Assembly: GCA_964450845.1 (NCBI GenBank)
Contig: CAYVGZ010000012.1
Location: forward strand, 1-23,759
Length of the DNA stretch: 23,759 nt
Reading direction: 5' to 3'
Source of the DNA: an uncultured Candidatus Bathyarchaeia archaeon
GTDB lineage: Archaea; Thermoproteota; Bathyarchaeia; Bathyarchaeales; Bathycorpusculaceae
Position 1 is the stretch's first letter. Every line of letters begins with the position of its first letter. Under the pieces are notes generated by a model. The model saw only the letters and a program-made list of their open reading frames with translations, was not told the origin of the DNA and did not search any database. Below are positions 1,378 through 14,675 of this stretch, piece by piece. Position numbers and translations under genes: made by a program.

Positions 1378-1872
1378 CTACGGAAGAAGTTTAAGCAAAA
1401 AATTAACTAGGAAATCTGCGGCAGTTTCAACTTCAGATGTTATGCCTTCTCCAAAATCAGTTTTTTCAGGTTCTATTAGCAGTAATGCAATCTTCGCATT
1501 TGCTGTTTTGGCAAGATATTCACAAAAAATGCGCAGTGGAAGCATGTGTGTTGAAATTGCAGGAAAATTTGCTAATCGTTCTGGATTAATGAGCCTTGAA
1601 TTTCCGGGTTTTAAACCTAAAACTGCGGCATCTATCAGAAGAAGATGTGTCGGGTTAAAATCTATGATTTGTTGGATAAAGTTCTCTGGGACAGTTTCGC
1701 ACTCGATTAAGTAAACTTTTTCAGAAACTTTTCCCTGCAAATTTTGAACTATCTTAATACCGACGAAATCATCCATGCGGATAGGATTTCCAATGCCTGC
1801 TACAACTACTTTTTTAGCGTTTGAGAGCCATTCTTCTAGCTCTTTTTGAATATTGTATTTTTCGTTAGTCAT
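1378..1872 (-). CDS. hycI: [NiFe]-hydrogenase maturation endopeptidase (HycI-like)
   Basis: GIGNPIRMDDFVG, ETVPEN, LLLIDAA and STHMLPL motifs; last gene of the mvh operon. Confidence 0.88.
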   Translation of the reverse strand: MTNEKYNIQKELEEWLSNAKKVVVAGIGNPIRMDDFVGIKIVQNLQGKVSEKVYLIECETVPENFIQQIIDFNPTHLLLIDAAVLGLKPGNSRLINPERLANFPAISTHMLPLRIFCEYLAKTANAKIALLLIEPEKTDFGEGITSEVETAADFLVNFLLKLLP

Positions 1873-1918
1873 TAGAAATCGCCATAGAACCTAACCGAAA
1901 CTGAAGGGAATAAAAGGC

Positions 1919-3373
1919 TTATCTATGCACAGTTTTGAGCAATTTCTTTTCGTGGTTATAGATTTCTACTGTTAACGGCATCTGTCCAATAGCGAAGTGT
2001 GAGGCGCACGCGAAGCATGGGTCGTAGGCTCTGAAAGCCATCTCCACCCTGTTGAGTACTCCTTCGCTTACTTTGTCGCTGTGAATTAAACCTTTAGCGG
2101 CATCACGAATCGACATGCAAATTGCCGGATAATTGTTAGTCGTTGCAACAATCAAGTTCACATTTTTAATGAGCGCATTTTCATCCAAAACATAATGATG
2201 AATCAATGTGCCTCTGGCTGCCTCCACTATTCCTACACCCTCTCCCGGCTTTCCCGGTAGATTGCGAACTTCTTTACTTGTTATCTCCGGGTCCTTGCTT
2301 AGTTCTACAGCATGCTCAGCAGCGTAAAGAATTTCAATAAGCCTAGCCCAGTGAAAAGCCAGCGTGGAGTGTACGGGTTTTCCGCCAAGTGTTTTGTACA
2401 TAATTTCGTATTCCTCTTGTGCCGAGGGAGTTGCCATGCCGTCTGCGGCGTTAAGTCTTCCAAGTGGTCCAACGCGGTAAACTCCGCTGTCTGAGCCGTC
2501 GACGAATCCTTTCCATCCCACTTTTTTAAGGTAGGGCGTTTTCACGTAAGTCCATTCTTCCACATGTTCATTAATGTGATTAAGATAGTCTTTGGGCGCA
2601 AATTTTAGAAACTCGTTACCGTTCGGGTCGACAACTCTAACTTTGCCGTCGTAGAAGTTAACCTTGTTATCCTCATCAACCAAACCCATATAGTAGGTTT
2701 TCAGCGTGTAAGCGTCGCTTTTAATCATCTCAACATAGTTTTCGTTTCCCAGAATAATGTCGTGAAACAGCTTCAACGAACGCTTTACGAAATCCACGCA
2801 GGAAGTAGCCATTTTTTCGATTTCTTGCCTGTCTTCTTCTCTTAACGGTTTAGAGATTCCGCCAGGTAACCCGCAAGCGGGATGGATGGCTTTTCCACCG
2901 ATGATTTCTACAATTCTTTGTCCATACGCCCTATGCTTTATGACTTCTTTGCCTATTTCTAACCCCGCCTTTTCAATTATTCCTAAAATGTTTCTTTTCT
3001 CTGGCGGAGCATCTGGTCCAACTATAAAGTCTGGGCCACCCAGATAGAAGAAGTGCAGTGTGTGATCTTCGATCATGTAGCCGCAGTACATGAGTTCCCT
3101 AAGTTTTTTCGCAACAGATGGAGGTTCAACGTTGAACGCGGCGTCTAAGGTTTTTGTACCAGCCATATGATGAGCAACTGGGCAGACTCCGCATATTCTG
3201 CTCGTCAGTTGCGGCATGTCCTCCGCTTTTCTTCCAACACAGAATCTTTCAAAGCCTCGTAGTTCTGGAATTTGAAGGTAAGCATTCTCCACATTTCCTT
3301 GCTCATTCAGAAAAATTGTGATTTTTCCGTGACCTTCAAGTCTAGTAATAGGATTTATGGTTACTTCTCTCAT
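1919..3373 (-). CDS. mvhA: Group 3c [NiFe]-hydrogenase large subunit MvhA (copy 1)
   Basis: TRLEGH, L1 RICGVCP, EAARG, L2 DPCFACASH followed by a cleavable tail. ATGA overlap with mvhG; Hdr context. Confidence 0.95.
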   Translation of the reverse strand: MREVTINPITRLEGHGKITIFLNEQGNVENAYLQIPELRGFERFCVGRKAEDMPQLTSRICGVCPVAHHMAGTKTLDAAFNVEPPSVAKKLRELMYCGYMIEDHTLHFFYLGGPDFIVGPDAPPEKRNILGIIEKAGLEIGKEVIKHRAYGQRIVEIIGGKAIHPACGLPGGISKPLREEDRQEIEKMATSCVDFVKRSLKLFHDIILGNENYVEMIKSDAYTLKTYYMGLVDEDNKVNFYDGKVRVVDPNGNEFLKFAPKDYLNHINEHVEEWTYVKTPYLKKVGWKGFVDGSDSGVYRVGPLGRLNAADGMATPSAQEEYEIMYKTLGGKPVHSTLAFHWARLIEILYAAEHAVELSKDPEITSKEVRNLPGKPGEGVGIVEAARGTLIHHYVLDENALIKNVNLIVATTNNYPAICMSIRDAAKGLIHSDKVSEGVLNRVEMAFRAYDPCFACASHFAIGQMPLTVEIYNHEKKLLKTVHR

Positions 3374-4362
3374 TTCTTCATCACTTTCCTTCTCAGAATT
3401 GAAGATGGAAGCGAATACATGTAAAACGTTCCCAGCGGGTCTTTTATTTGAGCAATAAGCTTTTCAACATCAGCTTCTGTGTACTTTTGCTTCTCTTCTT
3501 CTAAGCCGAGCAGCGACGCTAACGCACTCATCATCGCAGCTCCTTGCTCAGACGAATTTGGACACGGTCCCCCGCATCCAGTGCATGGCATACCTATCTG
3601 TATACATCTCGCATCGCATCCTCCGCGGGTTGCCGGACCCATGCAGATTATCCCTTGTTCTAAAAGACATTTGTTGGGGTCTGGGATAATTTCGTATATG
3701 CGGTGTATTTCAGTGATTTGCATCTTTCCTTTCTTCAAGGGGTTCAATGGGCATTCATCGCAGACCGATTTTGGCGGAGCGAGCACTGAGCCCTTCGGTG
3801 GAAGTTTACCTTTCGCTATGGTTTCTAAAGCATTTATTGTAAGCTCGACTGGTGGAGGACATCCTGGAATATAATAGTCAACGTCCACTGTTTGGGCTAA
3901 GGTTTTAACCGTGTCGTAGAATTCTGGAAGTTCCAGTTCTCCTTCTTTAACTTTGACTCGAGTTTTAGGAGCTACACCGTTCGGATTGGGTGTGGAGACA
4001 TTTTTGAGATAAACTTCTTCGAACACTTCTCTTCTGTTTGTGACGTTTGCTAAGCCAGGTATCCCTCCCATGTACGAGCATGACCCGTATGCGATTAGAG
4101 TTTTTGATTTCTTTCTCAGCAATTTCGCCATTTTCTCGTTTTCTTCTGTTCTTACCGCTCCGTTAAAGAAGCAGACGTCTATGTGTTTATCCGGCATGTT
4201 TTCAACGTCTTTGTATTTAATGTCGATGGCTACTGGCCAGAAAACGATGTCAGCTGCTTGTACAACTTCCAAGATTTTCTCGTTTATGTCTAAGACTGAG
4301 ATTTCGCAACCGCCGCAGCTTGCAGCCCAGTAAAACGCGAATTTCAGTTTCTCTTTCGCCAT
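3370..4362 (-). CDS. mvhG: Group 3c [NiFe]-hydrogenase small subunit MvhG (copy 1)
   Basis: SCGGCE, GSC, PGCPP, CDECP, CMGPATRGGC..RC, PCTGC. Start at ATG 4362 preferred; ATG 4371 is an alternative. Confidence 0.95.
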   Translation of the reverse strand: MAKEKLKFAFYWAASCGGCEISVLDINEKILEVVQAADIVFWPVAIDIKYKDVENMPDKHIDVCFFNGAVRTEENEKMAKLLRKKSKTLIAYGSCSYMGGIPGLANVTNRREVFEEVYLKNVSTPNPNGVAPKTRVKVKEGELELPEFYDTVKTLAQTVDVDYYIPGCPPPVELTINALETIAKGKLPPKGSVLAPPKSVCDECPLNPLKKGKMQITEIHRIYEIIPDPNKCLLEQGIICMGPATRGGCDARCIQIGMPCTGCGGPCPNSSEQGAAMMSALASLLGLEEEKQKYTEADVEKLIAQIKDPLGTFYMYSLPSSILRRKVMKK

Positions 4363-4372
4363 TCTTATCATC

Positions 4373-5254
4373 CTACCCTTGAATTTGACCTAGAAGCTCT
4401 GTTGGTTTAACCCTGAGCTCGTTTAGAGCAAGTTCTTCAGGTGTGAAACCCATTGCTAAGCCCAGCAACTGTGGATAATGCAGAACGGGTATACCAATCT
4501 TCGCGTTGAAAGCTTTTTCTATTCTTGGTTGGTTTAAGTCGTACATCATGTGACAGAATGGACAAACCGTGATGAGCGCTTGGGTTCCCACGGCTATGAC
4601 GTGGTCAAACTTTTCTTTCGCCATCTGAAATGGAATTGTTTCGTTGACTCCAATTATTGGGTTTCCACAGCATTCAGCCTCATCCATGTAGTCCAAACAC
4701 TCCGCACCGGTCAACCTAATTAGGGTTTTAAGAAATGTTGGGTTCTCAGGATCGTCTTTTTCTATGAGTTTCTTGGGACGGACTATGTGGCATCCAGTAT
4801 GCTGAGTGACACGAAGGTTGGTCAGTGGCTTTTTGACAGCGTTCTTTATTTTCTCAAAGCCTACGTCTTCAACTAAAACGTGGACGAGGTGTTTGATCTC
4901 TATTGTTCCCTTAAATTCCATGCCGATTTCCTTTAGGTATCCGTTAACTTTTTCTCTCAGCTTTTTGTCCTCTTTGAGCATCTTGTTTGTTTCATTTAAG
5001 ATGCCGAAACATCCGTTGCATAAAGTTAGAATGTTCAAGTTTTGTTTTTCTGCTAAACAAAGATTTCGCGCTGCCAAAGTTAGCATCAAGTCATGGTTTA
5101 TTGGATCCATCGGAAATCCGCAGCAGTTAAACTCGGGCATTTCAACTAATTCTACTCCGAGTTTATCAAGAACCTTTCTCGCAGAAATTTCGTAGCTTGA
5201 AAGCCTGTAGGGAATAACGCACCCTAAAAACAGTAAATACTTTGATTCTGGCAT
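4373..5254 (-). CDS. hdrB: Heterodisulfide reductase subunit B (copy 1)
   Basis: Two CCG domains with all 10 Cys: LGC, NCCG, CNGC, TGCH, ECCG, CPFC. Confidence 0.95.
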   Translation of the reverse strand: MPESKYLLFLGCVIPYRLSSYEISARKVLDKLGVELVEMPEFNCCGFPMDPINHDLMLTLAARNLCLAEKQNLNILTLCNGCFGILNETNKMLKEDKKLREKVNGYLKEIGMEFKGTIEIKHLVHVLVEDVGFEKIKNAVKKPLTNLRVTQHTGCHIVRPKKLIEKDDPENPTFLKTLIRLTGAECLDYMDEAECCGNPIIGVNETIPFQMAKEKFDHVIAVGTQALITVCPFCHMMYDLNQPRIEKAFNAKIGIPVLHYPQLLGLAMGFTPEELALNELRVKPTELLGQIQG

Positions 5255-5255
5255 T

Positions 5256-5810
5256 TTAACTTTTCACCTTTTCGAAGGTTTTCACATTCTCAAGTATTTT
5301 TGAGGAACCTGTAACCTCGAAGATTTTTGCGACGTCTTCTAGGTTGGGTTTTGGCAATTGTGGAAGCCCCTGCTCTGTTCTTTTTTTATGTCGTGATTCT
5401 GGGATTTCGTAAACGTAGCCTGTTTTTAAGAGGTTAGAAGCTAATTCCTTGAAGACAAGGGGCATAATGCCTCTTTCTTTTATAGTTAGGTTTCGTAGGA
5501 CTCGTACAATGCTGGCGATCTCCACATTCTGAGGGCAATGGTCAACGCATGTGAAACAGGTGGAGCACAGCCAAAGGGCATCATCTGAAAGGAGTCTATC
5601 TTTCAATCCGAACTGCACCATACGCGCGATTTTTCTTGGTCTGTAAAGGTCACTGAATTTGGAAATTGGGCAGTCAGCAGTGCAGGTTCCGCATTGGAAG
5701 CACAGCATAAGTTTTTCTGCGCCATGCATCTTGCTAATTTCATACTTGAATTTCGGGTCTATTTCCTCAGCTTTTATAACGCTTGGAACATGTTCTTGTG
5801 TTTCACTCAT
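5256..5810 (-). CDS. hdrC: Heterodisulfide reductase subunit C (copy 1)
   Basis: CFQCGTCTADCP and LWLCSTCFTCVDHCP; directly precedes hdrB. Confidence 0.95.
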   Translation of the reverse strand: MSETQEHVPSVIKAEEIDPKFKYEISKMHGAEKLMLCFQCGTCTADCPISKFSDLYRPRKIARMVQFGLKDRLLSDDALWLCSTCFTCVDHCPQNVEIASIVRVLRNLTIKERGIMPLVFKELASNLLKTGYVYEIPESRHKKRTEQGLPQLPKPNLEDVAKIFEVTGSSKILENVKTFEKVKS

Positions 5811-6243
5811 TTTGTTTTCCTCCCATTTTTAACGGGTTTGGTCCAAGCTTTTTTATTTGTTCAACCATGTCCCGTACGATTGTAGCGAATTTGTCTCCTT
5901 CGCTTGCGGAAACCCATTCAAGCCGCACACGCTCTGGTTCAATTCCGAAATCTTGTAGAACTTTCTTTAATAGAGTTATCCTTCTTAAAGCTTTGAAGTT
6001 TCCGCTAATGTAATGGCAGTCTGATGGCAGGTGACATCCAGCAATAAGCACTCCATCTGCACCATCCTTTAAAGCTTCGAGGACAAACGAGGGGTCAATT
6101 CTGCCGCTACACATGACGCTTATGATTCTAATGTTCGGTGGATACTGAATTCTGCTAACTCCAGCCAAGTCTGCGCCCGCGTAGCTACACCAGTTGCAGA
6201 GGAAACCAATAATTTTTGGTTCAAACCCGTTTTTCTCGGTCAT
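5803..6243 (-). CDS. mvhD: MvhD [2Fe-2S] hydrogenase-HdrA adaptor
   Basis: Canonical CNWCSYAGAD, VMCSGR, GCH...DCHY, EWVSASEG. ATGA overlap with hdrA. Confidence 0.95.
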   Translation of the reverse strand: MTEKNGFEPKIIGFLCNWCSYAGADLAGVSRIQYPPNIRIISVMCSGRIDPSFVLEALKDGADGVLIAGCHLPSDCHYISGNFKALRRITLLKKVLQDFGIEPERVRLEWVSASEGDKFATIVRDMVEQIKKLGPNPLKMGGKQNE

Positions 6244-9200
6244 GCTTGTACCTCCACAAGTGCGGCTTTAACTTGGGCGAGTATCTCTTCCGTGGTGAAG
6301 TGCCCCATTATGATAGCTTTTGTTGGGCATGCTGTGCCGCAGACTCCGCAGCCTTTGCATAGGGCTTCAATTACATGCGCAATGGGTTTCCCATCTTTTT
6401 CCTTCATTTCAATCGCACTATATGGACATAGATGTTCACAAATCTTACATCCGCTACATAAATCTTCGTTAACGTTTGCCACTATTCCTTCCATCTCAAG
6501 TGTGAGTTTTGAGAGTATAGTTGTTGCCCGTGAAGCTGCTGCACAGGCTTGAGCAATGCTTTCGTCTATGTATTTTGGCGAGTGAGCTATTCCGCAGAGG
6601 AAAACGCCCTCTGTTGCGAAATCTACTGGTCTAAGTTTCATGTGGGCTTCTAAGAAAAAGCCATCCTCTGTTAATGGCACTTTCAGCAGTTCTGCCACAC
6701 GTTTGTTGTCTGGATTTGGAATTGTAGCTACGCTTAAAACGACGAGGTCTGGCTCAATTTCAACTTCTTCGTTTACTACTGGTTCCCAGAAGGATAATTT
6801 GAGTTTTCCATCTTCGTTTACAACTTGCGGTTTTCTTTCATCGTCATAATTTATGAATAGAACCCCTTTTTGTGCAGCTTCACGGTAATAGTCTTCTTTA
6901 AAGCCATATGCTCGCATATCTTTGTACAAAATGTAGACTTCTGTTTTTGGACTCTTTTCTTTGATTTTCAGTGCGTTTTTTATTGCTTGTCCACAGCATA
7001 TTCTTGCACAGTTTGGTCGTTTTTCATTTCTTGCTCCGACACATTGAATCATAACAACGTTTTTTGCATTAAAACGGTCATTCGCGATTTTTTCTTCTAG
7101 CTCGCGTTGGGTTATTACTCTCGGGTCTTTGCCGTAGAGGTATTCCGTGGGCTTATATTCAACTGCGCCCGTTGCTACTATTACTATGCCATGTTCAACC
7201 TCTTTTTCATCATCTCGCTGCTTTATTTTTGATTTGAAGTTGCCAACAAAACCAGTGACATCGACGACTTCAGCTTCCAAGTGAACATGTATCTTGTCGT
7301 TCTCCATAACAGCTTTGGCTAGAGCGTTTAACTTTTGCTTTGGGTCTTCATTCTCCAACAAGTAATGAATCTTACGTAAATGTCCGCCTAACTCTTTTTC
7401 TTTTTCAACAAGATGAACTTCAAATCCTTGATTTGCAAGTTCTAGGGCTGCAGTCATGCCGGAGACACCACCGCCTATGATTAAGCCAACTGGTGTGACA
7501 TTTATCACAGGTTTTTTCAATGGTTTTAGAAGTTTGGCTTTTGCCACTACTGAGCGGATTAGGTCTTTGGCTTTTTCTGTTGCCTTTTCTGGCTCATGTA
7601 TGTGAACCCAACTGCATTGGTCTCGAATGTTTGCCATCTCGAATAAGTAGGGGTTCAGCCCAGCCTCTTGAACTGTTTCTCTAAACAGTGGCTCATGGGT
7701 TCGCGGGGTACATGAAGCAACAACAACACGGTTAAGATTGTTCTCTTGAATTTTCTCTTTAATTAATTTTTGTGTATCTTGCGAGCATGTGTAAAGGTTG
7801 GCTTCTGCATAAGCCACGTTGGGCAAGGTTCTAGCATACGCTACGACCTCTGGAACATTTACTACTCCGCCTATGTTTATTCCGCAGTGACATACAAAAA
7901 CACCTATGCGTGGCTCTTCTTGGCTTATGTCCCTTTCATGCGGGTACTCTTTAACAGTTACAAGTTTCCCTCTTTCAGTTGCAATTGTACCCATAGCTTT
8001 AGCTGCTGCGCCGCTTGCCTGTGCAACGCTTTCTGGAATATCCTTTGGGGCACTGAACGCACCGCACACGAATATGCCTGGTTTTGAGGTTTCCAATGGC
8101 GAAAAATATTTTGTTTCACAGAACTTGTATTTGTTCAGCTCTACCCCCAAAATTTTAGCTAGTTTCTCCACGTTTTTTGGTGGCTGCATTCCAATTGACA
8201 GAACAACCATGTCGAATTCTTCAGTTTTAGGCGTCTCATTCTCAACATAGTGAACAAAAAGATTGGCTGTTAACGGATTTTCAGTTACGCTTGCAACCCT
8301 TGACCTCACAAATCTTATTCCCCACTCGCCTTTAGCTCGATTATAGTAAGCGTCAAACTCTTTTCCGTAAGCCCGCAAATCCATGTAGAAAATTGTGGGT
8401 TCCAGCTTCGTAGGCGTGTGTTCTTTAGCGATTACCGCCTCTTTTATTCCATACATACAACATGCAGCAGAACAATAGTTATTTCCAAGCTGGAAATCCC
8501 TTGAACCTACGCATTGGATAAAGGCTATTTTCTTCGGAATTTCACCGTCTGAAGGTCTTAAGACAAGCCCGCCATAGGGTCCAGAGGCGCTTAGAATGCG
8601 TTCAAATTCTATGCTTGTTACAACATTAAGATAGCGTCCATAGCCATATTCGCTTTTCAATTTTGCATCGAAAGCTTCGAATCCTGGTGCTAGTATTATT
8701 GAGCCTACGTTTAATGTGGCTTCGCTGTCTTGTTGGTCGTATTCTATTGCTTTTGCCTTGCAGATTTCAAGGCACGTTCCGCATCCAATGCATTTTTCAC
8801 GATCAATTTTATACTTTAATGGTACTGCTTGGGGATAGTCCACGTAAATTGCGCTTCTTCGGCTTAACCCTTCATTATATACGTCTACGGCTTCGATTGG
8901 GCATTTTTGTGCGCATAAACCGCATCCGTTGCATTTGTCTTCGATTATGTAACGACTTCGTTTTCGAACTTTTACTTCGAAGTTTCCAGCTTCACCGTTT
9001 AAGCCAGTTATTTCAGCGTTGGTCAAAATTGAAATGTTCGGGTGTCTTCCAGTTGCTACAAGTTTAGGCGAAAGAATGCACATTGAACAGTCGTTTGTTG
9101 GAAATGTCTTGTCAAGCTGAGCCATCACTCCGCCGACACTTGCTCCCTGATCAATTAAGTACACTTTAAACCCAGAATCTGCCAAGTCTAAAGATGCTTG

Positions 9201-9257
9201 TATCCCAGCAACTCCTCCTCCGACTACAAGGACCGCACCAACTTTTTGCTCAGCCAT
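6240..9257 (-). CDS. hdrA: Large two-module HdrA (1005 aa): FAD module 1 with inserted ferredoxin, HdrA N-type Fe-S domain, FAD module 2, C-terminal 2x[4Fe-4S]
   Basis: GGGVAG and GGGVSG Rossmann motifs; PTNDCSMC; two QCVG(S/A)R...C..(I/A)CC...K motifs; internal VCHCG/CS/CTP/QCSWVH domain; C-terminal CSGCKICEHLCP and CKGCGVCGTACP. GGAGGT RBS at 9270-9265. Confidence 0.95.
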   Translation of the reverse strand: MAEQKVGAVLVVGGGVAGIQASLDLADSGFKVYLIDQGASVGGVMAQLDKTFPTNDCSMCILSPKLVATGRHPNISILTNAEITGLNGEAGNFEVKVRKRSRYIIEDKCNGCGLCAQKCPIEAVDVYNEGLSRRSAIYVDYPQAVPLKYKIDREKCIGCGTCLEICKAKAIEYDQQDSEATLNVGSIILAPGFEAFDAKLKSEYGYGRYLNVVTSIEFERILSASGPYGGLVLRPSDGEIPKKIAFIQCVGSRDFQLGNNYCSAACCMYGIKEAVIAKEHTPTKLEPTIFYMDLRAYGKEFDAYYNRAKGEWGIRFVRSRVASVTENPLTANLFVHYVENETPKTEEFDMVVLSIGMQPPKNVEKLAKILGVELNKYKFCETKYFSPLETSKPGIFVCGAFSAPKDIPESVAQASGAAAKAMGTIATERGKLVTVKEYPHERDISQEEPRIGVFVCHCGINIGGVVNVPEVVAYARTLPNVAYAEANLYTCSQDTQKLIKEKIQENNLNRVVVASCTPRTHEPLFRETVQEAGLNPYLFEMANIRDQCSWVHIHEPEKATEKAKDLIRSVVAKAKLLKPLKKPVINVTPVGLIIGGGVSGMTAALELANQGFEVHLVEKEKELGGHLRKIHYLLENEDPKQKLNALAKAVMENDKIHVHLEAEVVDVTGFVGNFKSKIKQRDDEKEVEHGIVIVATGAVEYKPTEYLYGKDPRVITQRELEEKIANDRFNAKNVVMIQCVGARNEKRPNCARICCGQAIKNALKIKEKSPKTEVYILYKDMRAYGFKEDYYREAAQKGVLFINYDDERKPQVVNEDGKLKLSFWEPVVNEEVEIEPDLVVLSVATIPNPDNKRVAELLKVPLTEDGFFLEAHMKLRPVDFATEGVFLCGIAHSPKYIDESIAQACAAASRATTILSKLTLEMEGIVANVNEDLCSGCKICEHLCPYSAIEMKEKDGKPIAHVIEALCKGCGVCGTACPTKAIIMGHFTTEEILAQVKAALVEVQA

Positions 9258-10014
9258 TTATTTAACCTCCAATGCTTTGTAAAATGGAGTTGTTCCTTCC
9301 ACATGGTCTAATGCTATCATGTTTCTTCTGCGCATGTCCACAATTTGTCTAAGCACGTCTGATGGTTTCATTTCAACTGTTTTTGCTAAATCTTTGACCG
9401 AAAGTGGCCTAGTTTTCGTTAATAGGTAAAATTTATGTCGAATGAACTCTTCTTTAACAATTTCATCCATCAATGCGTCAAACTCATCTTGAGGAATTTT
9501 CTCGCCATAAACATTCACGCCTTCTGTCAACTCTTTTTCTCTTCCAAGCAAAACTCTCAAGCGAAAATCAGAAGCAGCATTCTTAGCCGCTAAAACATTC
9601 ACCATTAATCCAGATTCCAGCTTCCCGCTTTTTAAAGGAGAAGAACCGAGCTTGGCTATTTCACTAGAAAATTCTTTTGCATAGTAATTGAAGCTTTTCT
9701 CCTCTAAAGGCGAAACCAGAAGAAGTTTTTATACGTTCAGGCTCTAAGCCAGTAAACGCTACAAGCTTCTTTAACATTTTGACTGCACGTTCTGCTTGAA
9801 CGTTTCCTTCAATAAAGTGGCAGTCAGGCGGCTTGCAGCCAACCATCATAACAGCGTCTGCGCCTTTTTCAAGCGTCTCAAGGACTATGACTGGATCGAT
9901 TCTTCCTAGGCACATGACACGGACGACATTTACGTTGGATGGAACATGCATTTCACTCTGGCAAAAAGTCCAGTTGCACATGAAACAAACAATCTTATGC
10001 TCACGAGAACCCAT
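9258..10014 (-). pseudogene. MvhD-like [2Fe-2S] domain fused to a helical/winged-helix domain, interrupted by a single extra base (ORFs 9664-10014 and 9258-9605). May be a sequencing error rather than a true pseudogene.
   Basis: Removing one base of the T5 run at 9726-9730 changes ERIKTSSG... into ERIKLLLVSPLEEKSFNYYAKEFSSEIAKLGSSPLK. This aligns with MvhD ERVRLEWVSASEGDKFATIVRDMVEQIKKLGPNPLK and reads in frame into ORF 9258-9605, giving 251 aa. Confidence 0.85.
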
Positions 10015-10020
10015 AATCTA

Positions 10021-11736
10021 TCACTCCTTCACAGTTGCTAAGGCAAGGCTCATTATTTGCTCGTTAGACACTTTCTTCATTGTTATGGCTTGTTCAGGGC
10101 ACCTTGCTACACATATTCCACAGCCCTTGCAAAGGTCTTCATTCACTTGTGCAACCTCTCTTTCATTCTTTTTAATCGCCCCAAACGGGCAAACAACTGC
10201 ACAAACATTACAGCCTGTGCAAAGACCTTCATCCACAACAGCCTTGTCAGCTTCACATAATTCCAAGTTTCCGAGGCACTCTGCGCATGGGCCACAGCCT
10301 AAGCAGCGAAAAGCTTCAAACATTGCTTTCTGTTCTATCTTTTTTAAATACTCTTTTGCTTCTTCAAAACTCAGCCGTGGCTTCTCCAATGGAGACTCAT
10401 ACCTACGTTCTTTCTTTCCGACGTGCCCCCAGTTTTTAACCCACGTTGTCTCTTCAACGTTTCCTTCCCTTCCTTCACGCAAGTCTTGCCCCGTCAAGTA
10501 GAGATTGATTGAAACAGCTGCTCTTTTTCCTGCTCCGACAGCTTCAATTATGCTTGCTGGTCCTGTGGCTATGTCGCCTCCTGCAAATACACCTGGCAAT
10601 CTAGTTTCTAATGTCACTGGATCAACTTGCATTGATGGAACTTTTGCTTCCTTGTCCCAAAGCTCCTCGGGTACGCATGACATTTCTGCTACTTGTCCAA
10701 GGGCAGGAATTACCATGTCCACCTCGTATTGATGTTCAGAGAAGCTTATTGGAATTGGGCGCCTTCTGCCGCTTGCATCAGGTTCACCCAACCGCATGCG
10801 CAAACATTCAACAGCCTTAACCTTGCCATTTTCACCTATGATCTGTTTTGGTGCAACTAGAAAATAGAATTTGATTCCGTCTCTTTCAGCTTCTGCAATT
10901 TCATGCGGTAGCGCTGGCATTTCTTCACGCGAACGCCTGTATAGAATCATGACTCGTTTTGCACCAAGTCTTTTTGCCGTTCTCGCAGCATCTATGGCGC
11001 TGTTTCCGCCACCAACAACCGCTACTTTTTCTCCAACATCAACATGCTCACCAAGCGCTACAGCCTTTAAAAAGTCAACAGCGTTTATTGAACCTTCTAA
11101 ATCTTCACCTGACACGTTTAACTTCATGCCTTGCTGAGCCCCAATAGCTATGAAAATGGCTTTGTAGCCTTCGTTTCGTAAGCTTTCAAGGGTTATGTCT
11201 TTTCCGAATTCCACACCTGTTTTGATTTCTACGCCTAAGTCTTTGATGTATGCTATCTCGTTTGCAACTACAAATTTTTCGAGGCGAAAGTCAGGAATGC
11301 AATAACGCATCATGCCTCCGTTTTCAGACATTCGCTCGAAAACTGTTACTGGATAACCGAGTTTTGCAAGCTCGTATGCAGCAGTTAAGCCTGCTGGACC
11401 TGCACCTATAATTGCAACTTTTTCACTATGCTTCTTTGGTATAGGCTCTGGTCTGACGCGCCCTTGATCACGCTCAATGTCAGCAACCAATCTTTTCAGA
11501 GCACGAATAGCCACTGCCTGATCAACATTCGTTCTTGCACATGCATCTTCGCAGGGACTGAAGCAAACTCTTCCACATATCGCTGGAAAAGGCATGTCTT
11601 TTCGTATAAGTTCCACAGCTTCCTTGAATTTTCCTCTCTGAATCAGAGAAACGTACCCTTGAACGTTAACATGTGCCGGACATGCAGCTCTGCACGGAGG
11701 GAATTTCTTTACGTTTGTGTGGCTATTATTTGCCAT
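10021..11736 (-). CDS. GltD/NfnB-like FAD/NAD(P)H oxidoreductase with N-terminal Fe-S clusters and an HdrA-type C-terminal 2x[4Fe-4S] ferredoxin
   Basis: PPCRAACPAH, CGRVCFSPCEDAC, GAGPAG, GGGNSA...YRRS, FAGGD, RCLGCGPCAEC, then CTGCNVCAVVCP and CKGCGICVARCP. ATG 11736 preferred over TTG 11778. Confidence 0.88.
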   Translation of the reverse strand: MANNSHTNVKKFPPCRAACPAHVNVQGYVSLIQRGKFKEAVELIRKDMPFPAICGRVCFSPCEDACARTNVDQAVAIRALKRLVADIERDQGRVRPEPIPKKHSEKVAIIGAGPAGLTAAYELAKLGYPVTVFERMSENGGMMRYCIPDFRLEKFVVANEIAYIKDLGVEIKTGVEFGKDITLESLRNEGYKAIFIAIGAQQGMKLNVSGEDLEGSINAVDFLKAVALGEHVDVGEKVAVVGGGNSAIDAARTAKRLGAKRVMILYRRSREEMPALPHEIAEAERDGIKFYFLVAPKQIIGENGKVKAVECLRMRLGEPDASGRRRPIPISFSEHQYEVDMVIPALGQVAEMSCVPEELWDKEAKVPSMQVDPVTLETRLPGVFAGGDIATGPASIIEAVGAGKRAAVSINLYLTGQDLREGREGNVEETTWVKNWGHVGKKERRYESPLEKPRLSFEEAKEYLKKIEQKAMFEAFRCLGCGPCAECLGNLELCEADKAVVDEGLCTGCNVCAVVCPFGAIKKNEREVAQVNEDLCKGCGICVARCPEQAITMKKVSNEQIMSLALATVKE

Positions 11737-11780
11737 TGTTAAACCAGCTGAGTGTAGAATAATACTCGTTCCCTGCAAAA

Positions 11781-11788
11781 TATATTAA
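11781..11788 (-). promoter_or_regulatory. Candidate TATA box of operon A
   Basis: TTAATATA on the minus strand about 45 nt upstream of ATG 11736, in the intergenic gap. Confidence 0.4.
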
Positions 11789-11847: not shown

Positions 11848-11854
11848 AAAAAAA
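11848..11854 (-). terminator. Oligo-T terminator candidate after the RHH-GcvH gene
   Basis: T7 run on the minus strand 13 nt after the stop at 11868. Confidence 0.45.
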
Positions 11855-11867
11855 GGGAAGATAGGGA

Positions 11868-12458
11868 TTATTCGCGTAATCTGCCTTCTAATTTGCTTAC
11901 CCACTTATTGTAATCCCGGGCACCTAGCAAGTTCCCTAATTCCTGTTCCAAGACCAGAGAGTTATTGGGTTTGATCTCCACGATCCATCCTTCTTTATAT
12001 GGGTCTTCATTGATTATGCGAGGCTCATTCTTCAGTTTTTCGTTAACCTTGACTATTTTACCAGTGACTGGTGCGTATAGGTCGAACATGAACATCCATG
12101 TTTCAGCAACGCCGAAAGGCTCCATTTTGTTGATTTCTTTTCCAACAGGATCAGTCATTACGTGAGCTATACCTTTTAGGTGATTTTGCGCATAGTCTGA
12201 AACTCCGACGCGGATGTTTCCTTTAGGTGTTACTTGAGCCCAAGTGTGTTTAGGCGTATATAACATCAACTCTGGTGTCAGCAAAAGTTCTTTGCGCTTT
12301 TCTGCTGGGATTCCTTCAGCACGCATAAGGTCTTCCAAGCGCAGGCGGATGGCTTCGGAGACGAATTCTGATATGCTTCGGTAGCGACCAGTTCTAATGG
12401 CTTCTTCGATTTCTTTGATGAGTTCTTGTCTTATACTCACGGTTTTCCATTCAGACAT
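11868..12458 (-). CDS. Ribbon-helix-helix (CopG/Arc/MetJ-type) domain fused to a glycine-cleavage H-protein-like domain lacking the lipoyl-lysine
   Basis: N-terminus WKTVSIRQELIKEIEE...YRSISEFVSEAIR (RHH). C-terminus LYTPKHTW, RVGVSDYAQ, GVAETWMFMFDLYAPVTG, VNEKL, INEDPYKEGWI (GcvH). Strong RBS GGAGGGTGA. Confidence 0.85.
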   Translation of the reverse strand: MSEWKTVSIRQELIKEIEEAIRTGRYRSISEFVSEAIRLRLEDLMRAEGIPAEKRKELLLTPELMLYTPKHTWAQVTPKGNIRVGVSDYAQNHLKGIAHVMTDPVGKEINKMEPFGVAETWMFMFDLYAPVTGKIVKVNEKLKNEPRIINEDPYKEGWIVEIKPNNSLVLEQELGNLLGARDYNKWVSKLEGRLRE

Positions 12459-12487
12459 TTTCCATCACCCTCCTTTTTCATCTGAGT

Positions 12488-12549
12488 GATATATAGCGCA
12501 AACCTGACATATATACTTGATGCATATACGATGTATAGAAGTATATACT
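12488..12549. promoter_or_regulatory. Array of TATAC/GTATA-type elements upstream of the RHH-GcvH gene (promoter and candidate operators)
   Basis: GATATATAG 12488-96, TATATACTT 12510-18 with its exact inverted copy AAGTATATA 12539-47, TATAC-gat-GTATA 12525-37, palindrome AGTATATACT 12540-49. Confidence 0.5.
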
Positions 12550-12621: not shown

Positions 12622-12828
12622 TCACTTTTGTTGTCTGCCAAAATCTGACAGATTCCAGACACGTTCATGTATAAAATAAATGAGAGGTTTCAATACGAGT
12701 TCTGCGAATCCAATAGTGCCACTTAAAACCACGTTTCCCGTGAAAATAAACACCAAAAATATAGTTGTAAAAGACGCAACTATTCTCCAAGAAATTGCTT
12801 TTGCTAAACTTCTAATGGGCTTTTCCAT
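12622..12828 (-). CDS. DUF2061-family small membrane protein (68 aa)
   Basis: RSLAKAISWRIVA...FTG...E...IYFIHERVW signature with hydrophobic segments. ATG 12828 with GGAGA upstream. Confidence 0.8.
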   Translation of the reverse strand: MEKPIRSLAKAISWRIVASFTTIFLVFIFTGNVVLSGTIGFAELVLKPLIYFIHERVWNLSDFGRQQK

Positions 12829-12956
12829 TTCTAATCTCCTTTGCCGTACACTCTCTATTGGACAGTGCGTAAGCATAATTAACCCTTTCTAAATCCACAA
12901 GGTCCTGTAGTATGCTGCCAATGTTTCCAATGCTCATGTTTTTCTCCAAAATTCCG

Positions 12957-12968
12957 ATTAATATATAA
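12957..12968. promoter_or_regulatory. AT-only TATA-like element in the divergent DUF2061/PhoU intergenic region
   Basis: ATTAATATATAA, readable as a TATA box on either strand. Confidence 0.4.
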
Positions 12969-13038
12969 CAGAAACGGAAAAATACGGGTAATGGATATAG
13001 AACAAATAATGTAAATACTAGTAAAAACGGTGACTTTT

Positions 13039-14112
13039 TTGGAAAGCAGGAAAGTACAGAAAGTAGGATACTCAACTATAACTGTGTCGCTTCCAAGTGA
13101 ATGGGTAAAACAAAACAACATTAATCCTGGCGATCTTGTTTTTCTCACATCAGAAAAGGATGGCACATTAAGAATTATGCCGAGCCAGATTGCACACAAA
13201 GAAGAAGCAGAAGAATACATAATAAACACTGATGCATGCGACGAGAAGGGTATGCTTGAAAGAATAGTTGTTGGAAGCTACATACTTGGGCGCGATGTTA
13301 TACGAGTAACATCCTCACGCAGAATAGGAAAGGAACATGTTGATGAAGTTAGAAAGATTGTTCGCAAACTAATTGGTTTAGGCATTCTAGAAGAGACTCC
13401 GAAAAACATCCTTTTGCAATGTTCGGTTGATCCTGCCAAATTCAAACTTGACATGTTAATTAGACGATTATCTATAATTGCATCAACAATTTTGTCTGAA
13501 ACAATGCAGGCTTTTCTGGAAAAAAATAAATCTCTGGCAGAGGAAGCGATCAACCGTGAAGATGAAGCTGACACAATTTACTATCTTGCAGTGCGTCTGC
13601 TTCTTTCTGCACAGCTAAAACCAGATGTAGCAGAACAAATAGGCGCAACAGACGTTGTTTTTATCCCGGCTACCCGTGTGATACTACAATATTTAGAGTT
13701 AATTGCAGACTTTTCTGAAGACATAGCCAAAAAAATCATTGCACTTGATATTCGCAGAAGCAAATTGACCAAAGATATGGTTGAAAGAATTTATCATCTA
13801 AGCGAATTAGCACAAGTCATATTCCAGAAGGCCTTAGACTGCATTTTCACACGAGACCTTAAAGTTGCGAATGGATTGTTGGAAATGAAAAATGTGCTGG
13901 AAATGGAATCTGATAAGCTTATGCGAGAGCTTCCTGAAATTCCATATCTGAGAGCAATCATTTCATGTTTAAACAAAATCGGAGACATGGGTGCAACAAT
14001 TGCAGAAATAGCGATAAACAGAGCTCTGGAAAAACCAAGCAAAGAAGTGGAAAACATTATTCGAACAGTGAAGCACATGCGAACTTTACCATTGACGACG
14101 AGTAAGAAGTAA
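13039..14112 (+). CDS. Archaeal AbrB/SpoVT-domain plus PhoU-repeat regulator
   Basis: RKVQKVGYSTITVSLPSEWV..NNINPGD (AbrB-like); helical PhoU repeats with REDEAD. The longest ORF starts at GTG 13030; TTG 13039 sits 5 nt after GGTGA. Confidence 0.85.
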   Translation: MESRKVQKVGYSTITVSLPSEWVKQNNINPGDLVFLTSEKDGTLRIMPSQIAHKEEAEEYIINTDACDEKGMLERIVVGSYILGRDVIRVTSSRRIGKEHVDEVRKIVRKLIGLGILEETPKNILLQCSVDPAKFKLDMLIRRLSIIASTILSETMQAFLEKNKSLAEEAINREDEADTIYYLAVRLLLSAQLKPDVAEQIGATDVVFIPATRVILQYLELIADFSEDIAKKIIALDIRRSKLTKDMVERIYHLSELAQVIFQKALDCIFTRDLKVANGLLEMKNVLEMESDKLMRELPEIPYLRAIISCLNKIGDMGATIAEIAINRALEKPSKEVENIIRTVKHMRTLPLTTSKK

Positions 14113-14204: not shown

Positions 14205-14675
14205 ATGGACGATTTTGAAGAAGCGTTGCGAAACATAGATGTTTTCTGCAAAGTCCTAGTTAAGAAACTTGCCGATAATGAAGACGGTAACATTGTTGTG
14301 GAGCCAATAGAAGAGTTACTCTACAGAAAAAACATAATAGACACGCAAGCAGAGCCAAATTCTTCACCTAAACATTTGATTTCTCTTCCACAAGCAGAAG
14401 AGCCTCTAATCGACGTTTTCGAAGACAATAATCACGTTAAGGTTTTGATGCAATGTCGCTGCAAAGACCAACCAGTTACGGTACACACAAGCACAGATGG
14501 TGTAGAAATCTGCAAAAAAGAATGTCACACAAACGCAGAAGGCCTTGAAGTATGCATAGATAAATGCCAAAAACTAAACGTGCCAGTTGAACATTTAGAA
14601 ATTGGAAACATGACCGCAAAATGTAGCAACAATGCAGTCTTCGAAGTGAACATTCCGAAAACAAGGTCAACGTAA
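14205..14675 (+). CDS. Divergent Cys-rich Hsp20/alpha-crystallin-like protein
   Basis: EEPLIDVFED..HVKV and terminal NNAVFEVNIPK resemble the first and last strands of archaeal sHSP alpha-crystallin domains; 8 Cys. Confidence 0.55.
   Translation: MDDFEEALRNIDVFCKVLVKKLADNEDGNIVVEPIEELLYRKNIIDTQAEPNSSPKHLISLPQAEEPLIDVFEDNNHVKVLMQCRCKDQPVTVHTSTDGVEICKKECHTNAEGLEVCIDKCQKLNVPVEHLEIGNMTAKCSNNAVFEVNIPKTRST

Follow-up and report, generated by a model that had tools for sequence, protein, structure and literature searches.

A lysine-less, GcvH-derived domain fused to a ribbon-helix-helix domain in Bathyarchaeia: a mis-annotated family of candidate one-component regulators beside AbrB-PhoU and Hdr/Mvh genes

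Ribbon-helix-helix (RHH) DNA-binding domains do not always stand alone. In 'trigger' proteins of the PutA type, the RHH domain is fused to a metabolic module, and PutA keeps its enzyme activities and senses the redox state of its own flavin. In NikR, a repressor that responds to nickel, an N-terminal RHH domain is followed on the same chain by a non-DNA-binding domain of ~100-130 residues, an ACT-like fold that binds the metal at a His/Cys site and mediates tetramerisation. The H-protein of the glycine cleavage system (GcvH) has been proposed as the ancestor of Simiate/FAM206A (Abitram), a eukaryotic protein (PMC3859600), and two other reports describe GcvH-like LbpA proteins as functional partners of the sHdr complexes of sulfur oxidisers (10.1101/2023.12.18.572138, 10.64898/2026.10.01.755906). 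Here we analyse a gene in which the two folds meet. It lies at 11868..12458, on the minus strand of a 23,759-nucleotide stretch from an uncultured Candidatus Bathyarchaeia archaeon (assembly GCA_964450845.1, contig CAYVGZ010000012.1, positions 1 to 23,759; hereafter the window), and the ORF list and its translation give a protein of 196 aa (P0001) with Pfam matches to RHH_1 (3e-4) and GCV_H (1e-29). We consider it reasonably likely that this protein, hereafter RHH-GcvH, works as a one-component regulator of the RHH class, that its domain for effector binding or oligomerisation stems from a duplicated H-protein, and that it acts with, or on, an adjacent AbrB-PhoU protein and the flanking redox operons.

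RHH-GcvH shares something with each of these systems. As in NikR, an N-terminal RHH domain precedes a larger non-DNA-binding domain on one chain; however, that domain is here the barrel-sandwich of GcvH rather than an ACT-like metal-binding fold, and it has neither cysteines nor a histidine cluster. Since neither the fold nor the metal ligands of the NikR C-domain are present, the protein is not a NikR. As in PutA, an RHH domain is joined to a module from core metabolism, but that module no longer has its cofactor site. In eukaryotes, Simiate/FAM206A sets a precedent for the non-enzymatic use of an H-protein descendant, yet it is only ~20% identical to GcvH, has no RHH domain and serves an unrelated function, whereas the present family is archaeal and much closer to GcvH. 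The likeness to LbpA lies in a GcvH-like protein encoded beside Hdr-type genes. LbpA is described as lipoylated on a conserved lysine, devoid of a DNA-binding domain, bacterial or specific to sulfur oxidisers, and served by dedicated ligases; here the lysine is missing, no ligase gene occurs among the ORFs of the window, and hdr genes lie downstream at most but not all loci. Judged by these described traits, the family is not LbpA.

The C-terminal domain (residues 62-188; 11895..12275, minus strand) has the barrel-sandwich fold of H-proteins. GCV_H (PF01597) covers residues 66-188, sequence matches to PDB entries reach 1e-22, and the AlphaFold2 model (mean pLDDT 83.6, per-block values of 86-96 over residues 71-190) superposes in Foldseek on the solved H-proteins 3a8j, 3klr and 1onl with TM-scores by target of 0.91-0.94 and an rmsd of 1.1-1.6 Å. 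Identity is 29-37% to solved H-proteins and 36% to the GcvH encoded by the same genome. The frame around the lipoyl hairpin, F-G-x-x-E ... D-L-Y-A-P-V-x-G, is intact, preserving the E-x-x-x-x-x-x-D-L-Y-A-P spacing of GcvH, and the N-x-D-P-Y and G-W motifs of H-proteins are retained. Within this frame, E119-T-W-M-F-M-F125 (12084..12104, minus strand) takes the place of the canonical E-S-V-K-A-V-S: in HMMER alignments to solved H-proteins, ETWMF stands opposite ESTKS or ESVKT. Met122 (ATG, 12095-12093) therefore occupies the column of the lipoyl lysine, as the original prediction had read it, and Trp121 (TGG, 12098-12096) lies one column earlier.

Loss of the lysine is a property of the whole family. 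A word-indexed search gave 780 relatives. The 120 best of these are 83-97% identical, measure 196-202 aa, come from Candidatus Bathyarchaeia and mostly carry the name 'glycine cleavage system protein GcvH'; 'ribbon-helix-helix protein' is a rare alternative. ETWMF is kept in all of these 120, which places the hairpin under purifying selection; 117 fit the full pattern given in the original prediction, and the other three deviate only outside ETWMF. An exhaustive search of representative sequences added full-length members that are 32-67% identical and a tandem fusion of 417 aa. A fold search of the Atlas gave a single archaeal cluster of this 196-aa protein, with 52 members, and otherwise ordinary GcvH, and a language-model search for look-alikes with GCV_H clusters left out gave no usable match. 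When 24 divergent family members are set column by column against 82 canonical GcvH sequences, lysine fills the attachment column in 80 of the canonical sequences and in none of the divergent rows; it is likewise absent from all 120 close homologues. None of the ~170 relatives examined keeps it. With an intact ORF and a motif kept in more than 120 relatives, a sequencing error or a pseudogene is ruled out.

The changes extend beyond one residue. Across the hairpin columns S becomes T, V becomes W (20/24), K becomes M, W or L, A becomes F, and S becomes F, H or Y. The neighbouring strand has been rebuilt from G-D-[IV]-V-[FY]-V-E-L-P to K-G-I-A-[NH]-V-x-T-[ED], and the Glu of the H-E-W motif is replaced by M, T or I. 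Hairpin, strand and Glu are the elements that we take to surround the lipoamide arm and docking cleft of H-proteins, the Glu presumably holding the aminomethyl group. The ETWM substitution singled out by the original prediction, which had asked whether orthologues mostly retain the lysine, thus holds for the loss of that residue, which no orthologue keeps; the methionine itself varies among branches (M, W or L), and it is the Trp121 position that is conserved (20 of 24 divergent members). A Met-rich Cu(I)-type metal site at W121/M122/M124 was considered and rejected as a family property, the Trp being conserved and the Met positions variable. The protein contains no cysteine, as originally stated, and any cysteine occurs in only 3 of the 120 close homologues; this excludes that the protein itself senses thiol redox state.

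The public annotation implies a functional H-protein carrying a different cofactor or none, a reading that we regard as very improbable. It can draw on the strong GCV_H match and on an NF002270 score of 116.7 that falls just below the cut-off of 117, but TIGR00527 reaches only 99.2 against an equivalog cut-off of 115.85, so that both the equivalog and subfamily cut-offs are missed. The absence of the attachment lysine from every family member, the lost H-E-W Glu and the additional RHH domain all speak against it, and the protein is a GcvH descendant that has lost the defining lysine. The same genome also encodes a canonical 136-aa GcvH with the E-S-V-K motif on contig C33, GcvT on C38 and LplA on C28, none of them at the window locus (GcvP was not searched). 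RHH-GcvH is thus not the sole or main H-protein of its genome; with a true GcvH, LplA and GcvT encoded elsewhere, the window gene is a spare diverged paralogue. On contig C33 (genome G000, L001:117-1896), the canonical gcvH is followed by a gene for a 452-aa pyridine-nucleotide-disulfide oxidoreductase and not by gcvT or gcvP; by eye this reductase resembles the CoA-disulfide-reductase/NADH-oxidase type, and it is a possible stand-in for the L-protein.

A maximum-likelihood tree separates the family from its source. All lysine-bearing sequences, the bathyarchaeial ones included, form one clan (100/99 support, branch 0.64) with no family member inside, so that a long branch divides them from the family, which is a single clade. 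The family itself splits into two well-supported sister types, A, to which the window gene belongs, and B (100/99). At least seven genomes and several contigs have a B-type gene directly ahead of an A-type gene (for example L046:2047-3396, L047:7594-8802, L048:9059-10205 and L050:642-1944), and a natural B-A fusion joins the two in one 417-aa chain (P0121), to whose C-terminal half all single-domain relatives align in MAFFT. This arrangement suggests joint action of A and B proteins, for instance as heterodimers. In the lineage of the window, the A type is found alone.

What the remodelled surface does can be read in more than one way. In the regulator that we favour, the H-protein domain, no longer open to lipoylation, has had its hairpin and neighbouring strand rebuilt into a conserved hydrophobic surface centred on Trp, which may serve effector binding, oligomerisation or both, much as the C-domain of NikR does. 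A clearly less likely view is that of a DNA-binding regulator whose GcvH-derived domain senses nothing: the domain would be a dimer-of-dimers or heterodimer scaffold that spaces two RHH dimers or pairs A with B, and the signal would enter through AbrB-PhoU. The tandem B/A pairs in many genomes and the B-A fusion suggest that the domains associate; W-M-F-M-F makes a bulky hydrophobic patch of the kind typical of interfaces; and the gene adjoins one for a protein with a PhoU domain, PhoU domains being regulatory modules. Against a pure scaffold, the H-E-W Glu and the G-D-x-V-x-V-E-L-P strand have been rebuilt in a conserved manner too, and these residues, as presumed lining of the cleft, would suit a new pocket no less than an interface. 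Lineages with a single gene of type A, including that of the window, moreover work without a B partner.

The family has a narrow and patchy distribution. Among 201 species-level genomes of the class, ~50 of them from the order of the window, full-length RHH-fused forms are confined to that order, where 14 of the ~50 genomes carry one; even within the window's own family, one genus has none in 11 genomes. A second sample of the order added six carriers. One cluster member is labelled 'Baldrarchaeota'; its contig also holds an 85%-identical copy of the window gene and of the GltD-like gene, for which reason we do not take the label as a wider range.

The N-terminal RHH motif (residues 4-45; 12324..12449, minus strand) consists of a strand, WKTVSIR, helix A, a turn of the form G-x-Y-x-S-[IL]-S-E-F, and helix B, and is supported by RHH_1, a family profile and the structural model. 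RHH_1 matches residues 6-42 with 21.1 bits (cut-off 20.5), or 24.9 bits when the N-terminus is searched alone, which together with the GCV_H match upholds the two-domain architecture originally proposed. The strand-helix-helix is recognised by models of the RHH superfamily (CopG/Arc/MetJ/NikR), and 9 of 21 divergent N-termini individually reach RHH_1 at E-values up to 0.01. The family profile aligns strand and both helices to the N-terminal RHH domain of Helicobacter pylori NikR (E ~0.01) and equally matches CopG/Arc/MetJ-type antitoxins (E ~0.01); NCBIfam yields weak N-terminal matches to ParD and NikR, the NikR models covering the first 45 residues alone (E 0.015-0.16). The consensus of the 21 N-termini reads W-K-x-V-x-[IV]-[RK]-x-x-L ... 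S-[LI]-S-E-F-V-x-E-A-[IV]-x-x-R-L, with L13, F32 and L41 invariant, V33 and E35 present in at least 90% of rows, and the basic or polar strand residues K5, T6 and R10 conserved along with the S-E-F turn. In the AlphaFold2 monomer, helices span residues 7-22 and 29-47 and the strand is unpaired, as expected for a fold that is completed only in the dimer. Prediction of a homodimer from two copies scored 0.19 and 0.22 against a mark of 0.42, which counts neither for nor against binding. By analogy with the fold family, the N-terminus would bind DNA as a dimer.

The gene forms its own transcription unit, given the T-run that follows its stop codon and the separate conserved TATA box of the next gene downstream. 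It has its own promoter and a Shine-Dalgarno-like GGAGGG (SD; 12468..12473, minus strand) that is kept in orthologous upstream regions. The T7 run (11848..11854, minus strand), 14 nt past the stop codon, is a likely archaeal terminator, and T-runs occupy the equivalent position at 8 orthologous loci from closer relatives. A scan for bacterial sigma-70 promoters and hairpin terminators is uninformative in an archaeal host. The TATA-like box of the downstream operon, TTAATATAT (11780..11788, minus strand), is kept in 6 orthologous intergenic regions, where it lies ~45-55 nt ahead of the start of the GltD-like gene. The 1.64 Mb genome contains 26 instances of this 9-mer. Two of them lie in the window, and both flank the regulator gene: the one just given, in the promoter of the GltD-like/Hdr operon, and another at 12958-12966 on the plus strand, in the promoter of the AbrB-PhoU gene. 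It may simply be a strong TATA box, or it may be a shared control element.

A candidate operator lies in the promoter of the regulator gene itself. The sequence TATATAT-N13-TATATAT (12489..12515, minus strand; box 1 begins 57 nt ahead of the ATG) is the sole exact match to this dyad in the window, where 0.05 would be expected, and in the whole 1.64 Mb assembly. It recurs without mismatch at 13 orthologous loci, with N13 or N14, 48-59 nt upstream of the ATG and with diverged spacers. The boxes are 20-21 bp apart centre to centre, or two helical turns, and NikR half-sites have a similar spacing. Archaeal TATA boxes are typically centred near -26; box 1 would fit as TATA box if the transcript carries the SD, and box 2 (TATATATCA[CA]) would then lie between TATA and start site, the classical position for a repressor. 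Two palindromic boxes at this distance would suit two RHH dimers joined by their C-domains, in the manner of NikR. From this conservation, we infer that the regulator most likely binds the paired boxes and controls its own expression.

The most constant neighbour of the gene is a second regulator. When all ORFs in 11-19 kb around 14 genome loci were compared with the window proteins, the divergent gene for an AbrB (SpoVT/MazE-type)-PhoU protein (13030..14112, plus strand; Pfam MazE_antitoxin and PhoU) was adjacent at 12 of the 14; the exceptions are the second locus of one genome and a locus at which the gene is split. The pairing recurs in the 6 further genomes, on metagenome contigs for members at 33-45% identity and, between more diverged copies, in 3 further genomes, for a total of about 25 genomes or contigs. 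Each genome has several AbrB-PhoU paralogues. The specific orthologue (at least 54% identity) is virtually confined to genomes with RHH-GcvH, adjoining it each time, and the one apparent exception begins at a contig end. The original prediction had stressed the position of the gene directly upstream of an Hdr operon; its tightest association is with AbrB-PhoU. Judging by synteny, the two proteins would form a two-regulator cassette over neighbouring redox operons. In the split-gene genome (G062, L049:9074-9675), an RHH ORF (78 aa) and a GcvH-domain ORF (122 aa) are separate, and no AbrB-PhoU gene is nearby; judged by eye from the N-termini, the adjacent genes (L049:9820-11879) resemble three of DsrE/F/H type, a YeeE/YedE-type transporter and an arsenate-reductase-type phosphatase.

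RHH and AbrB/MazE are the two commonest DNA-binding folds of antitoxins, and here they are encoded side by side. The weak N-terminal matches to ParD and to CopG/Arc/MetJ antitoxins and the MazE_antitoxin domain at the neighbour's N-terminus could accordingly be seen as the mark of a remnant or variant toxin-antitoxin-like module. We hold this to be very unlikely, if slightly less so than a working H-protein: no toxin-like gene is found at any of the ~25 loci, both proteins have large C-domains of a non-toxin kind (GcvH fold and PhoU), and the chromosomal context beside energy-metabolism operons is stable across an order.

Downstream of the gene, at 1378..11736 on the minus strand, Pfam and NCBIfam assign a GltD-like flavoprotein, an MvhD-like::wHTH protein (split here), HdrA (1005 aa), MvhD, HdrC, HdrB, MvhG, MvhA and a protease. 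This operon is a likely target or co-regulated unit. The order GltD-like, MvhD::wHTH, HdrA, MvhD, HdrCB, with or without MvhGA, follows directly at 8 of the 14 genome loci and on 5 metagenome contigs (three for P0129, L054 for P0130 and L058 for P0131). The link to hdr, as originally proposed, exists here and at most orthologous loci, but it is missing from one genus and from the second locus of another genome. The outcomes named as refuting the original prediction, such as orthologues that mostly retain the lysine or lack a link to hdr genes, did not occur. In that genus (L040:2602-8954, L043:4131-13100), the genes downstream encode a TauE/SafE-like permease, a 124-aa protein of no family, NuoE/NuoF-like and 2Fe-2S/NuoG-like proteins, and a small/large pair of [NiFe] hydrogenase subunits; one distant member sits between TauE/DUF2061/AbrB-PhoU genes and a split HdrA gene ~4 kb away. 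The hdr link is real and secondary to the AbrB-PhoU link. On this synteny, the cassette would act on the GltD-like/HdrA/HdrBC/Mvh complex in most lineages and on the TauE and NuoEF-type hydrogenase cluster in one genus.

The genes of this operon show some irregularities. The MvhD-like gene (9664-10014) and a 115-aa wHTH-like ORF (9258-9605), both on the minus strand, are separate in the window, whereas in 8 orthologous loci and on metagenome contigs they form one ORF of 251-278 aa; the window copy therefore carries a frameshift or sequencing error. HdrA (6240-9257, minus strand; 1005 aa) scores 1052.7 bits on the HdrA2 model against a cut-off of 1100, and one relative, L044, has two such 1000-aa HdrA genes in a row.

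The proximity to Hdr gives some room to the idea that the protein is not primarily a transcription factor and that its pseudo-lipoyl domain is a decoy, as put forward in the original prediction, or an adaptor docking on a lipoyl-recognising or Hdr-type enzyme. The GltD-like flavoprotein, HdrB, LplA and an L-protein-like reductase would be candidates for such docking, which might couple the state of the enzyme to DNA binding or just modulate the enzyme; we judge the idea rather unlikely. Genes for GltD-like protein and HdrA do lie immediately downstream at most loci, the overall H-protein surface and the shape of the hairpin are retained, and the partnership of LbpA with sHdr offers a precedent. 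According to Loh et al., it is not known which disulfide Hdr reduces in Bathy-6 archaea, and the same holds for the Hdr substrate of non-methanogenic Bathyarchaeia (PMC7886697). On the other side, the domain groups apart from all lysine-bearing H-proteins and scores as GcvH-derived (in a tree without LbpA sequences), hdr linkage is lost in one genus and at second loci whereas AbrB-PhoU linkage holds, the regulator gene is a separate transcription unit, and Pfam and NCBIfam find no dedicated lipoate ligase at the locus. The decoy, the proposed link to lipoyl, glycine or C1 status and lipoamide as the Hdr disulfide are, beyond hdr synteny and the LbpA-sHdr analogy, speculation.

Several observations weigh against a regulator of this kind. 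The RHH score is just marginally over the Pfam cut-off, and hdr synteny is not universal. In the tandem-pair lineages and in the most divergent ones the dyad has decayed or is missing, and a search for it before the AbrB-PhoU gene, the hdr operon and a second operon of mvh/hdr genes found no copy; we therefore infer control of the hdr operon and of AbrB-PhoU from position only. A motif search of the genome with the dyad defines no regulon. Finally, TATATAT is the archaeal TATA consensus, so that the dyad could be two stacked or divergent promoters and not an operator.

Three further features complete the locus. A gene for a DUF2061 small membrane protein (12622..12876, minus strand; Pfam, 7e-18) lies between the two regulator genes, recurrently but not constantly. 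Behind the AbrB-PhoU gene, a Cys-rich protein of 156 aa with no Pfam or NCBIfam family (14205..14675, plus strand) has counterparts with 33-61% identity at 10 of the 14 genome loci and may belong to the same module. On L058 (44-1799), a 123-aa AhpD/CMD-family gene (alkylhydroperoxidase-like) stands between a divergent RHH-GcvH paralogue, whose hairpin has neither Trp nor Lys, and an 85%-identical copy of the window gene.

RHH-GcvH is a conserved, mis-annotated family with a domain architecture that is new within a known class of regulators; literature searches for RHH with GcvH, for lysine-less GcvH-like proteins and for AbrB-PhoU in archaea found no publication on it. The annotation 'GcvH' on several hundred such proteins is wrong, since none can be an H-protein, and metabolic reconstructions of Bathyarchaeia consequently over-count H-proteins wherever the gene is present. 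The family would be a clear case of a cofactor carrier put to new use as the part of an archaeal one-component regulator that does not bind DNA. A bolder version, which we regard as improbable, has the lysine-less domain mimic a lipoylated carrier. The hairpin, tipped with Trp, would then dock either into the PhoU partner or into the enzyme that handles the true disulfide substrate of the bathyarchaeial Hdr/GltD-like complex, and occupancy of the enzyme would control DNA binding. Were it true, such a mimic would suggest that the long-sought 'heterodisulfide' of Hdr/Mvh systems in non-methanogenic archaea is lipoamide bound to a protein or a related dithiol on a carrier. With a regulator, its AbrB-PhoU partner and a sharply defined candidate operator beside Hdr/Mvh genes, the ligand and regulon of the family would offer a tractable in-vitro route to the Hdr substrate of an uncultured lineage.

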